Positions 32,773 to 46,586 of a DNA stretch of 64,000 nt are shown piece by piece. Each line of letters opens with the position of its first letter. The stretch's first letter is position 1. The position numbers were made by a program, and so were the translations under genes. The DNA comes from an uncultured Clostridia bacterium (GTDB taxonomy: Bacteria; Bacillota; Clostridia; TANB77; CAG-508), in the NCBI GenBank assembly GCA_963931445.1, contig OZ007016.1, positions 129,546 to 193,545 on the forward strand, read 5' to 3'. The notes beneath the pieces are model-generated. The model had not been told where the DNA came from, ran no database searches, and saw only the letters and a list, made by a program, of their open reading frames with translations.

Positions 32773-33134
32773 ATAAAAATGTCGAAAAAGAGAACACGAT
32801 TTTTCTTGAAATGACAATAAAAATGTGTTATAAAAATAATGAAAAAGGATTTTAGTTAAGTATGTTTTCTAATAATATCGAAATTTATATTATTCTTTTT
32901 GTTTTGACAATCTAACATAGAATAACTTTATAGGTTAAAGTTGTTAATTTCATATACAATAAACAATTATTTCAAAAAAATTATTTTCTATATTTTTTAT
33001 CAAAAAATTTGTTAAAAAAATAAATTAACTTAATTCTTGGATATAATATTAATTATTCGCCAAAAATAAAAAATCAAATAAATTTTAAATATTTAAATAA
33101 ATAATAAAAGACTATTTAAAAGGAGGAAAATAAA

Positions 33135-33707
33135 ATAAATAAAAAAAATAATAATTCTACTCAAAATTGGTTAAAAATAGATAAAATATTAGAAAATGGA
33201 ATAATAAAAACAAAAGAAAATAAATATTTAAAAATAATAAAAATAAGTCCAATTAATTTTAATTTAAAATCTGAATTAGAAAAAGAAGCTATTTTAAATT
33301 CATATAAATTATTTTTAAAAACTTGTAATTTTAATTTCCAAATTTTAATTCAAAGTAATAAAGAAGATTTATCAAATTATTTTTCTAAAATAAAAAGTAA
33401 TTCTGTACTAGAAGAAAAAAATATTCAAGAGATATCAAATAAATATATAGAATATGTAAAAAAATTAAATAATAGTAAAAAGTCATCTTCAAAAAATTAT
33501 TATATTATTATAGATTATAATAATAGCAATAATGAAACATTAGATATTCAATCTCATGCTATTGAAAATTTAAATAATAAGTATTTTAAAATAAAAGATG
33601 GATTATCAAGATGTGGGAATATAGCAGTAGATATAAATGATCAAGAACAAATAAAAAATATATTATTTTCTTTTTTTAATACCAGAATTTATTTTAATAA
33701 CAAATAA
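33135..33707 (+). CDS. VirB4/TrsE/TcpF-like conjugative ATPase, N-terminal fragment (190 aa). No ATG in frame. ATA at 33135 lies 8 nt after SD aggagg.
   Basis: Hand translation ...NKKNNNSTQNWLKIDKILENGIIKTKENKYLKIIKISPINFNLKSELEKEAILNSYKLFLKTCNFNFQILIQ... is the typical VirB4 N-terminus. Absent from the ORF track because it has no canonical start. Same reading frame as the C-terminal part. Confidence 0.5.
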   Translation: MNKKNNNSTQNWLKIDKILENGIIKTKENKYLKIIKISPINFNLKSELEKEAILNSYKLFLKTCNFNFQILIQSNKEDLSNYFSKIKSNSVLEEKNIQEISNKYIEYVKKLNNSKKSSSKNYYIIIDYNNSNNETLDIQSHAIENLNNKYFKIKDGLSRCGNIAVDINDQEQIKNILFSFFNTRIYFNNK

Positions 33708-33881
33708 AAAATTATATATAAAAAATAATATTAAATAAATTATTTATTAAATATTATTTTATTAAATAATAAAATAAAAATATTAAATAAATAATATTAA
33801 AAATAAAATAAAAAATAATAATAAAAGGTTTATAGATATACCCATTATAAAAAATCTAAATATATAATATAAGGTAAATAA

Positions 33882-44301: not shown

Positions 44302-44325
44302 AATTAACCTCCTGTTATAAAATAA

Positions 44326-46203
44326 TTATTTTTTAAAATATGGTTTTAAATTTAATTTTTGTGGTTTTATAATTTTTGTTCCATCAGAAACAAAACAAAG
44401 AGCAGAAAAAGTTTCCAAATTTTGTGTAAAAAAATTTGTATCATAAACAAAATCATAAGTAATTTGAGTATTAATACTTTCAGATATGCTTGAATCTAAA
44501 GAGTTTAGAGAATTAGATATATAGCTATAATCAGTTTTTTTAGCATTTTCAGAAATACTTTTAAATATTTTTTCTTTATCTTCTTTGCCAATTTGTTTTT
44601 GAATGTTTTCAATAGTAAAAATGTCGTCAGTTCTAAACCAAATTTTATTTACTAAATTTTGTATAATTACTTCTACAGCATATTTATTATTTATTGAATT
44701 TAGCAAAGAAGTATAACTTTGAGTAGCAACAATATTTATACATTTTGCTTCTCTGCTTTGAGCATAAAATTCACTATCAGAACTAGTACAGTATTCATGA
44801 TATTCATCAGAAATAAATGCAACAGATCTAGAAGAATTTTTAAAATTGTTAGAAAGCCTAGCCATTACATCTGTTTGAAAATCTAATTTTAGATAAGTAG
44901 CAATTATTTTAGATAATGCTTTATATTCAGAGATATTCATATTTAAAACAACAATTTTTCCTGAATTTATTAAATCTTCAAAACCTAAAAAATTAAGTTC
45001 TTCTTTTATTGGATTAAAAGTTTTATATATTTCATAATCAGAAATAAAAATATTTGTAATTCTAGTAATTTCAGATTTTAATATTGATAATGTTCTTTGA
45101 TCCAAAGAACAAAATTCTTTTTGAAAAAAATTTAAAGAAGATATTAAGTTATATATGTCTTCATTAGAAAATTCATTTTTTAAAAACATATTTCTTAAAT
45201 ATTCTATTTTTTCAGCATAATAATTTTCTATAGAAATTAATTTATGAATTTCTTCAAAAGTTACATAGCCACAATTATATAATCTGCAAAGTTTAATACA
45301 TTCTGTTAAAATTTGTTCTACTTTATCTAGCCAATATGATTCAGAATTATTAGGAGAAAACAATAATAAAATTGTTTTCAATCTATTTGCTATAATAGAT
45401 GGTTTTAAATTGGGTTTATGAAGAGGATTATATTTATATTTTCCATTTAAACTAATAATTATTAAATCATCATTTCTACCACAATTTTTAGCAAATTCAC
45501 TTACTTTAGCGTGGTAATTACCTTTTACATCTAATATGAGCATTCCTATTTTATTACTATTATCTGTAGAACAATATTCTATTAATTGTTTAGTAAAAGG
45601 ATACATTGCACTACTAGTTTTTCCTGTACCAATTGTTCCTGTAATTAAAATATTTTGGTATAAACTTTTTAAAGGAAGAAATATAGGTTTATTATTTTTG
45701 ACTGAATTTCCTATATACATATTTAATGTATTATTTATAAAATTAGATTTATTTTTAAAATTACTAGAAATTAATCTGTTAAATAATAAATTATTATTTT
45801 TATTTTTTTCAGTATAAAAAAAAGTATATTTTTTTTTAATTTTATTATTGAGAAAATCATATATTAAATTAATTGGAACAAAAAATATTAATATAATTTT
45901 TTTAAAAATACAAAATAATTTAATTGTATTTAAAACTTTATTTAGAATATTGTTTATTTTTTTGAAAAAAATTATAAGAAAATTATAAAATATATTAGAA
46001 ATTATAATTGAGGAAAAAATATAAGAAAAAATAAAAATAAATTTAATGTATTTCCATAATTCAGGAAGTTTACTACAAATATTAAAAGGGTGAATTCCAT
46101 AAGAAATAATTATATTATTAGAAACAATTAAATTATAAAAAAGCTTATATCCAATAAAACAATATAAAAAAGAAAACAGAATTACAAAAGTAAAATGCCT
46201 AAT
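44326..46203 (-). CDS. VirD4/TraG-like type IV coupling protein (626 aa extended form). The ORF track starts at ATG 45720. The frame is open for 161 more codons upstream, to ATT at 46201-46203, which lies 6 nt after SD gaggtga and encodes the expected N-terminal TM helices.
   Basis: Walker A ITGTIGTGKTSS and ILDVKGNY. The extension was verified block by block (no stops between 45721 and 46209, in-frame TGA at 46210-46212). Extension residues FTFVILFSFLYCFIGY and IKFIFIFSYIFSSIIISNIF. Confidence 0.55.
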   Translation of the reverse strand: MRHFTFVILFSFLYCFIGYKLFYNLIVSNNIIISYGIHPFNICSKLPELWKYIKFIFIFSYIFSSIIISNIFYNFLIIFFKKINNILNKVLNTIKLFCIFKKIILIFFVPINLIYDFLNNKIKKKYTFFYTEKNKNNNLLFNRLISSNFKNKSNFINNTLNMYIGNSVKNNKPIFLPLKSLYQNILITGTIGTGKTSSAMYPFTKQLIEYCSTDNSNKIGMLILDVKGNYHAKVSEFAKNCGRNDDLIIISLNGKYKYNPLHKPNLKPSIIANRLKTILLLFSPNNSESYWLDKVEQILTECIKLCRLYNCGYVTFEEIHKLISIENYYAEKIEYLRNMFLKNEFSNEDIYNLISSLNFFQKEFCSLDQRTLSILKSEITRITNIFISDYEIYKTFNPIKEELNFLGFEDLINSGKIVVLNMNISEYKALSKIIATYLKLDFQTDVMARLSNNFKNSSRSVAFISDEYHEYCTSSDSEFYAQSREAKCINIVATQSYTSLLNSINNKYAVEVIIQNLVNKIWFRTDDIFTIENIQKQIGKEDKEKIFKSISENAKKTDYSYISNSLNSLDSSISESINTQITYDFVYDTNFFTQNLETFSALCFVSDGTKIIKPQKLNLKPYFKK

Positions 46204-46586
46204 AAAGAATCACCTCATATATGATTATTTTGGATTATTAAAATATTTAGATTTTAAAATTAACTTAGAACCTTGAGAATTGTGAAATATTTTATTATTA
46301 AAAAATAAATAAATTGAATAAAGAGTAATAAAAAAATGCAGAATAAAAATTATAAAAAATAAATCAATTAAATTAAATTTAAACACCACCTTCCAATTTC
46401 TACCAATAATACAACAAATTTTTGAATTTGTCTATACTTTTTACAAAATTTATGATAAAATTATTATGGAGCAAAAAAGCATATACAAAAAGCCTAAGTT
46501 ACTTTAAATAAATTTACAAAGTAATTTATTAATTAATAAAAATTATATATTACAATAAGCTAATAAAAGCTTGAAGGGAGGAAAAA

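Follow-up and report, generated by a model that had tools for sequence, protein, structure and literature searches.

How is a gene translated when its reading frame is long and intact, but offers no ATG, GTG or TTG at its 5' end? Three frames raise this question in a 64,000-nucleotide stretch of contig OZ007016.1 from an uncultured Clostridia bacterium (hereafter the window), which has a GC content of 23% and covers the replication-origin region of a chromosome. They encode a TrsD-like protein that corresponds to the N-terminal domain of VirB4 (VirB4N), a ParA/MinD/CpaE-like ATPase (ParA-like) and a VirD4/TraD-like type IV coupling protein (T4CP), all part of a gene set resembling a type IV secretion system (T4SS). 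An initial annotation made from the letters alone had reported that each frame is led by a Shine-Dalgarno (SD) motif with ATA or ATT 6-8 nt further on, and all three are exactly as first described. Judging from comparison with related species, we propose that these are functional genes translated from SD-directed, non-canonical AUA or AUU start codons, a reading to which we give a probability of about 0.75.

Throughout, ATG, GTG and TTG are called canonical starts, and ATT, ATA and ATC are grouped as ATH. In VirB4N, AGGAGG stands 8 nt before the ATA at 33135, from which the frame remains open for 190 codons; not one canonical codon occurs among the 195 codons between stops (33120-33707), and an in-frame TAA (33117-33119) lies 5 codons upstream of the ATA. 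The ParA-like frame (35772-37067), bounded by an in-frame stop 12 codons before the ATA, has GGGTGA as its SD 7 nt ahead of the ATA at 35808 and reaches a first canonical codon, ATG 35967, only at codon 54 from there. In the minus-strand T4CP frame (46209-44326), GAGGTGA is followed after 6 nt by ATT, and 161 codons pass before the first ATG, at 45720; as had been claimed, this extension encodes hydrophobic segments (residues 4-24, 53-81 and 90-119). A mini-ORF, ATG-AGG-TGA (46218-46210, minus strand), overlaps the T4CP SD in the same frame and ends two codons before the ATT, and may be either chance or a start-stop element.

With a stop probability of about 0.09 per codon, runs of 161 or 190 open codons have a chance probability of about 1e-7 to 1e-8. 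The SD motifs are rare: the two strands together (128 kb) contain 41 copies of GGAGG and a single GAGGTGA. When the whole window was scanned outward from SD motifs, the configuration turned up in these three genes only, the other flagged matches being rejected as internal SD-like motifs inside genes with normal starts. A fourth frame lacking ATG, which resembles APH-type phosphotransferases (12608-13315), was also rejected, as it is the downstream part of a frameshifted gene that starts at ATG 12482. That gene (12482-13315) has an AGGAG SD and changes frame around 12627-12636, within a run of T. Either the long-read ('tig') assembly contains a homopolymer error there or the gene is a pseudogene. 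Sequencing error at the start sites themselves is unlikely, because the VirB4N and ParA-like sites read the same in two short-read assemblies made independently from this species (99.7% identity).

In order to follow these starts across relatives, we compared 80 species-level gyrA loci (L001-L080), labelled as uncultured gut Clostridia (for example Clostridium sp. CAG:567, CAG:571 and CAG:273) and probably members of the TANB77/CAG-508 group, which has small genomes of low GC content; their gyrA is 82-95% identical to that of the window, and together they sample about 1.3 Mb near the origin. Orthologues were found by tblastn with the window proteins: VirB4N in 48 loci, the gene for the VirB4 ATPase part (VirB4C) in 54, T4CP in 61 and orf37129, a neighbouring ORF used as a control, in 72. 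Three tests of the start codon were applied, namely the codon aligned to the window start, an SD-guided assignment, and a stop-to-anchor test which asks whether any canonical codon lies between the upstream stop and the first conserved column. For VirB4C, recF, dnaI, dnaD and the pilin-like gene the aligned-codon counts were misleading because N-termini differ in length, and they were replaced by the stop-to-anchor test and by an alignment-free analysis described below.

The coupling protein gene gave the clearest result. Asked, as the initial annotation had suggested, whether orthologues carry ATG where the window has ATT, the alignment returned ATT in 23 of 53 sequences, ATA in 11, ATC in one and ATG in only two. 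SD-guided starts were non-canonical in 43 of 52 (30 ATT, 11 ATA and 2 CTG, against 5 ATG and 4 TTG), in a recurrent context of GGAGGT, 6-9 nt, and ATT or ATA followed by AAA-CGT-TTT (Ile-Lys-Arg-Phe). By the stop-to-anchor test, 33 of 53 sequences offer no canonical codon. An in-frame stop lies at most two codons upstream of 14 non-canonical T4CP starts and of 8 VirB4N starts (window included), which in those 14 T4CP sequences leaves no alternative start. In many T4CP orthologues a stop stands right in front of the aligned codon, for example TGA-ATT in L010, TAA-ATT-ATA in L004, and TAA or TAG, one codon and ATT in L044, L046, L048, L052, L059 and L067. Fitch parsimony on a neighbour-joining tree places a non-canonical start at the root, the canonical starts being 7-8 separate tips. 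We infer that the ATT/ATA start of T4CP is ancestral, old and maintained.

Other genes of the set behave similarly. SD-guided starts of VirB4N were non-canonical in 31 of 44 sequences (20 ATA and 11 ATT; 12 ATG and 1 TTG). VirB4C, which has ATG in the window and its closest relatives, starts at ATA, ATT or ATC in 33 of 44 related species, and a small ORF upstream of T4CP has an SD-guided ATT, ATA or ATC in 41 of 48 relatives. By the stop-to-anchor test no canonical codon was available in 19 of 47 VirB4N, 21 of 50 VirB4C and 22 of 52 small ORF sequences. Parsimony on the corresponding neighbour-joining trees gives a non-canonical root for VirB4N and the small ORF as well, and over T4CP and these two genes canonical starts arise 5-8 separate times; VirB4N and VirB4C have switched between ATG and ATH several times. 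In one relative, L013, the ATT of VirB4C is immediately preceded by ATG-TAA.

For the ParA-like gene the same alignment gave the opposite answer. The codon matching the window ATA is ATG in 19 of 23 orthologues and TTG in two; the remaining two are L013, with ATT, and L042, in which ATT is followed immediately by ATG. A conserved non-canonical start was thus not found, L013 alone having ATT without an adjacent ATG. The 53-codon extension, which the initial annotation had taken for a genuine N-terminus, aligns residue for residue with orthologues that begin at ATG there, and the window ATA appears to be a recent ATG-to-ATA change (a single G-to-A) in this species. All three available strains of the species have ATA at 35808. 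In L082 and L083 an A-to-G change at 35777 turns the in-frame ATA at 35775-35777, 11 codons upstream, into an ATG without an SD, which may be a compensating new start. A 5-nt indel (35737-35741) lies in the same intergenic region as this polymorphism. The first note on this DNA had offered two explanations, initiation at AUA/AUU or a start codon lost very recently. The former explains VirB4N and T4CP best; the latter fits the ParA-like gene only and does not fit T4CP, the start of which appears ancestral.

The history of the ParA-like gene is what would be expected from tolerated erosion, in which the ATG of weakly expressed genes decays to ATA or ATT in a small 23% GC genome with a strong mutational bias from G/C to A/T, while a strong SD still yields enough protein and no regulation is involved. 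Erosion is the alternative which survives best, although we consider it somewhat unlikely. Together with the single G-to-A of the ParA-like gene, the repeated turnover between ATG and ATH in VirB4N and VirB4C shows that erosion also happens. It accounts less well for T4CP, where the non-canonical root has persisted among ATH-start orthologues 53-94% identical to one another, where ATT outnumbers ATA (30 to 11) even though reaching ATT from ATG needs a transversion, and where the comparison is with other presumably weakly expressed genes (recF, dnaI, orf37129 and orf42767) that keep canonical starts. These observations favour selection in the case of T4CP.

A second possibility is translational coupling, with ribosomes that end an upstream ORF re-initiating at a nearby ATH, from the small ORF into T4CP and from VirB4N into VirB4C. 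The small ORF of the window does end 21 nt before the T4CP ATT, in the same frame, and many ATH starts have in-frame stops 0-2 codons before them. We nevertheless regard coupling as quite unlikely, given that the leading gene of either pair, VirB4N in one and the small ORF of relatives in the other, is itself an ATH gene with its own SD, that VirB4N and VirB4C are 175 nt apart in the window, and that each ATH has a full SD at normal spacing, enough for independent initiation.

If initiation fidelity were relaxed throughout the lineage, by an altered IF3 or initiator tRNA, ATH starts would be general and efficient and the T4SS-like genes would not be special. AT-rich bacteria such as Mycoplasma use more non-AUG starts, and four gene families of a single neighbourhood use ATH in many species here. 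However, the stop-to-anchor test found no orthologue lacking a canonical codon for gyrA (0/81), gyrB (0/38), dnaN (0/21), the VirB6-like gene (0/59), orf37129 (0/65), orf48125 or orf48702, and gyrA, gyrB, dnaN, the VirB6-like gene and orf48125 are essentially 100% ATG/TTG. In the alignment-free analysis, 829 non-overlapping ORFs of at least 150 codons were scored for a first canonical codon that is absent or more than 35 codons in. T4CP (21/61), VirB4C (24/57) and VirB4N (13/47) together account for 58 of 165 ORFs, against 7 of 664 in all other families. A lineage-wide relaxation is therefore very unlikely, and the ATH starts appear to be specific to these genes, at least over the 1.3 Mb or so of origin-proximal sequence sampled; the recurrence that the initial annotation had found unusual in one gene set is likewise non-random. 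Reassignment of AUA to methionine was rejected, as ATA codons of the window gyrA and gyrB align to ATT, ATA or ATC in orthologues and so encode isoleucine. The mean SD match is 6.0-6.4 nt in the ATH-start genes and 4.5-5.6 nt in most canonical-start genes, the canonical VirB6-like gene having 6.6 nt.

Selection on the frames, another claim of the initial annotation, was borne out by their conservation in about 50 species and by dN/dS, estimated by the Nei-Gojobori method, which is below 1 across all three extensions. VirB4N gives about 0.2. The T4CP extension has 0.18-0.68, compared to 0.09-0.28 for the ATPase part of the same gene, and the ParA-like extension 0.37-0.92 (0.37-0.55 with four of five partners), similar to the rest of that gene. 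In the orthologues the other frames of the same stretches contain 12-26 stops. Because the ATG-less extensions are kept in about 50 species with dN/dS below 1, the comparison supports their being translated and constrained.

These values also bear on whether the three genes could be pseudogenes deprived of their start codons, left over from the decay of an integrated conjugative element. The split of VirB4 into two genes, the failure to find a relaxase and the recent loss of the ParA-like ATG would suit such pseudogenes, but we hold this to be highly implausible: the frames are intact, with no internal stop or frameshift despite 23% GC, dN/dS lies at 0.2-0.7, the genes are conserved in relatives, and the truly frameshifted APH-like gene of the window looks quite different. 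Moreover, dozens of species keep the same genes in the same order between housekeeping genes, and the VirB4 split, with an SD for each half, is conserved too.

The same synteny speaks against the initial description of the three as mobile-element genes. Dozens of species-level genomes have these genes in one place, flanked by gyrB and gyrA and adjoining dnaI/dnaD, and the order gyrB-VirB4N-VirB4C-ParA-orf-gyrA-dnaI-dnaD-...-T4CP is found in about 40-60 of the 80 loci, most absences being due to contigs too short to reach the genes. Pfam and NCBIfam scans of all larger window ORFs showed no relaxase, integrase or recombinase near the cluster, and neither element boundaries, nor patchy presence, nor a variable insertion site was seen among the species-level loci. 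The sole transposase of the window (rve-family, 13976-15001) is about 18 kb from the cluster and adjoins two tRNA-Ser genes. The only mobile-element-like genes seen in the window are this transposase (13514-15001 region) and a KilA-N domain ORF (4344-5300), in which the first canonical start is 23 codons into the frame. No plasmid or integrative and conjugative element (ICE) was recovered as a relative at the DNA level, since megablast of 33000-46400 against plasmids matched gyrA only, and as a protein VirB4C had at most 35% identity to plasmid sequences by tblastn. The best of these matches, on a Vescimonas plasmid, is a fused PrgI-VirB4 of other architecture and therefore uninformative on start codons. 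The T4SS-like set looks vertically inherited in this family.

Automated gene calls take another view of the locus. On the source contig (ENA ERZ21563600 tig00052108, 764 kb, 100% identical to the window) the pipeline left VirB4N uncalled, began the ParA-like gene at the internal ATG 35967 (366 aa) and called T4CP as 464 aa. N-termini are inconsistent among the best-scoring 120 of 5,379 database relatives of T4CP, all from metagenome assemblies, with lengths of 464, 582-598 and 591-683 aa, and some appear to begin at a GTG inside the SD. That the annotated downstream starts are the true ones and the upstream frames untranslated leaders, as these calls and the widely varying database N-termini would have it, is barely credible, since VirB4N lacks any canonical codon and yet is a conserved 190-codon homologue of the VirB4 N-domain with dN/dS of about 0.2, the T4CP extension is open in about 50 species (12-17 stops in its off-frames) and encodes the hydrophobic segments expected of a coupling protein, and the ParA-like N-terminus aligns residue by residue with ATG-starting orthologues.

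Several points weigh against translation from SD-directed ATA and ATT codons and should be set beside the evidence for it. In DNA of this composition chance alone would put an in-frame ATH at a suitable distance in about 24% of cases, so that SD-guided start calls are heuristic and an ATA or ATT by itself is weak evidence; what carries weight is that a long conserved frame opens right at an SD and has no canonical start there. For the ParA-like gene two strains, L082 and L083, carry the in-frame upstream ATG, and since the gene is fast-evolving (dN/dS 0.4-0.5) its function may be reduced in the window strain. The nominal Fisher P of 4e-37 for 58/165 against 7/664 overstates the significance because orthologues are not independent. 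With dS near saturation the dN/dS values are rough, and those of the T4CP extension, which reach 0.68, are rather high. Every sequence comes from a metagenome assembly, the start sites are read from sequence comparison, and these data do not separate a selected weak start from erosion tolerated under AT mutation pressure.

If these genes do start at ATA and ATT, a strong or extended SD (GGAGG, GAGGTGA) would dock the 30S subunit with AUA (VirB4N, ParA-like) or AUU (T4CP) in the P site, where the initiator tRNA would pair with the first two bases and the protein would begin with fMet. The likely result would be a low output of the motor and coupling ATPases, sensitive to initiation fidelity and IF3, relative to the pilin-like and VirB6-like proteins, which have ATG and TTG starts. 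Initiation at these codons, its reduced efficiency, its IF3 dependence and selection rather than tolerance are thus all parts of the proposal. The weak start would be old and maintained for T4CP and the TrsD-like gene, would also operate in VirB4C and the small ORF of relatives, and would be recent for the ParA-like gene.

Such a mechanism lies within known biology, as ATT, ATC and ATA are listed start codons of NCBI table 11. In Escherichia coli, an inefficient start codon, against which IF3 discriminates, limits the translation of infC and pcnB (both AUU). The genes studied here share with them an SD-directed AUU/AUA, a non-canonical start that is conserved and an expected low, IF3-sensitive output, and infC-type regulation, in the sense of IF3 sensitivity, is by analogy a reasonable expectation; they differ from infC in that they are not infC, so no autoregulatory loop is implied, and in that several genes of one machine share the feature. 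In Staphylococcus aureus, initiating-ribosome profiling (Ribo-Ret) and reporters have identified conserved starts in infC (AUA), cvfC1 (AUU), ccpN (AUA) and citZ (AUA), with extended SDs, and these starts gave approximately 10-30% of the output of AUG (PMC13009471). The cases from S. aureus, and ccpN in Bacillus subtilis also, resemble ours in several respects: the organisms are Bacillota, a strong or extended SD stands at the usual distance, and the start codon is kept from species to species, except for a minority of lineages that have gone back to AUG (PMC13009471). Those are single regulators or enzymes, whereas the feature described here extends to three or four components of a single secretion-like apparatus and, as read from sequence, persists at the family level. 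Our literature searches returned no report of ATT or ATA starts in VirB4 or VirD4 genes, and none on a T4SS in this lineage. The mechanism is therefore of a known kind, and what is new is its concentration in one machine and its persistence across a bacterial family.

Features of the locus. Inferred starts are those proposed in the text.
Feature	Position	Strand	Remarks
dnaA	26433
dnaN	28119
recF	29416		RemA-like ORF next
gyrB	30793-32706		follows the RemA-like ORF
VirB4N SD, AGGAGG	33121-33126	+	8 nt before ATA 33135-33137; orthologues have GGAGG-type motifs at the same place
VirB4N (TrsD-like / VirB4 N-terminal-domain gene)	33135-33707	+	190 codons from inferred ATA start; stop 33705-33707
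VirB4C ATPase gene	33882-35696	+	604 aa; CD1110 profile positions 184-730; canonical ATG in window
ParA-like SD-like motif, AGAAAGGGTGA	35790-35800	+	7 nt before ATA 35808
ParA/MinD/CpaE-like ATPase gene	35808-37067	+	419 codons; inferred start ATA 35808-35810
orf37129	37129-37857		242 aa; between ParA-like gene and gyrA; in 72/80 loci; no Pfam/NCBIfam family
gyrA	37995-40433		beyond VirB4N, VirB4C and ParA-like genes
dnaI	40590-41621	-	past gyrA
DnaB_2/DnaD-like gene	41658-42662	-	beyond it, the operon that runs up to the coupling protein
97-aa ORF	43060-42767	-	ATG start; same operon as T4CP; internal control
VirB6-like multi-membrane-span protein	43950-43060	-	TTG start; same operon; internal control
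T4SS-pilin-like	44301-43966	-	ATG start; downstream of T4CP in same operon; internal control
Coupling protein (T4CP, VirD4/TraD-like)	44326-46203	-	625 codons; inferred start ATT 46203-46201
T4CP SD, GAGGTGA	46216-46210	-	own TGA (46212-46210) is an in-frame stop; then TTC TTT, then ATT (6 nt spacing)
Small hydrophobic ORF	46225-46389	-	54 aa; just upstream of T4CP, same frame; conserved in about 50 species
Conserved ORF	57120-58925		601 aa; no Pfam/NCBIfam family

The T4SS-like set (30793-46389) comprises the TrsD-like, VirB4 and ParA-like genes, the 242-aa ORF, the small membrane ORF, the coupling protein, the pilin-like and VirB6-like genes and the 97-aa ORF; it is interleaved with gyrB, gyrA, dnaI and the dnaD-like gene beside dnaA/dnaN, in an order kept in dozens of species-level genomes. 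Profile matches identify a VirB4-family ATPase and a VirD4/TraD coupling protein (P-loop_TraG / AAA_10, E = 2.6e-21; CD1110, E = 1e-85; TrwB_AAD_bind, E = 9e-9; TraG-D_C; SXT_TraD, E = 1e-11), which belong to a distant lineage, since NCBIfam scores fall below equivalog cut-offs. A PDB sequence search with the coupling protein gave no match. In five relatives (L014, L049, L032, L061 and L027) the N-terminal membrane part of T4CP (about 117-188 codons) and its ATPase part are in separate frames or ORFs, which may be split genes, frameshifts or assembly errors. The start of the small ORF is ambiguous in the window, where a GTG lies inside GGTGGTG. Rfam and tRNA scans of the window returned six tRNAs, none of them suppressor or unusual, and nothing else; promoter and terminator scans gave matches fewer than, or no more than, in shuffled sequence and are uninformative because the DNA is so AT-rich.

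VirB4 is divided here into the 190-codon TrsD-like gene and the 604-aa ATPase gene, separated by a very AT-rich spacer (33708-33881, about 175 nt), and this split, with one SD per half, is conserved across the family. Split VirB4, with a small TrsD/TraD-like protein beside the ATPase, is known in Gram-positive conjugation systems. The two halves found here correspond to such CD1110-family proteins in that VirB4N matches profile positions 1-160, its residue 9 falling on position 1, with a weak match to the TrsD/TraD family, and VirB4C takes up the profile from 184 to 730; they differ in scoring below all curated family cut-offs, in having only about 35% identity to the closest plasmid VirB4, in being chromosomal and in lying in a set where a relaxase was not found. 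In the same way the set has the parts of a minimal Gram-positive T4SS of ICEs and plasmids, namely a VirB4-like ATPase, a VirD4/TraD-like coupling protein, a VirB6-like polytopic protein and a small pilin-like protein, but no relaxase, integrase or element boundary was found, and the genes stand in among gyrB, gyrA, dnaI and dnaD at the replication origin, in synteny conserved across species.

A further, speculative step, which we think unlikely but less so than translational coupling, would be a start-codon regulon: the TrsD-like, VirB4, T4CP and small membrane ORF genes would be deliberately kept on AUU/AUA, so that the machine is gated after transcription by the ratio of IF3 to ribosomes or by growth state. 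If this were true, infC-like logic would extend from one gene to a multi-protein apparatus, kept for the lifetime of the family.

At a practical level, gene callers limited to ATG, GTG and TTG miss the TrsD-like gene altogether and, on the source contig, cut 161 residues including the membrane anchor from T4CP and 53 from the ParA-like protein. Conserved non-AUG starts are usually reported gene by gene, whereas here the ATPase genes of one machine share them in about 50 species and their neighbours do not. The family could thus serve as a natural system in which to ask whether weak starts are selected for stoichiometry, or for coupling expression to the fidelity of initiation. In these small-genome gut Clostridia, a T4SS-like set which is conserved among the replication genes and in which no relaxase was found is probably important to their lifestyle.

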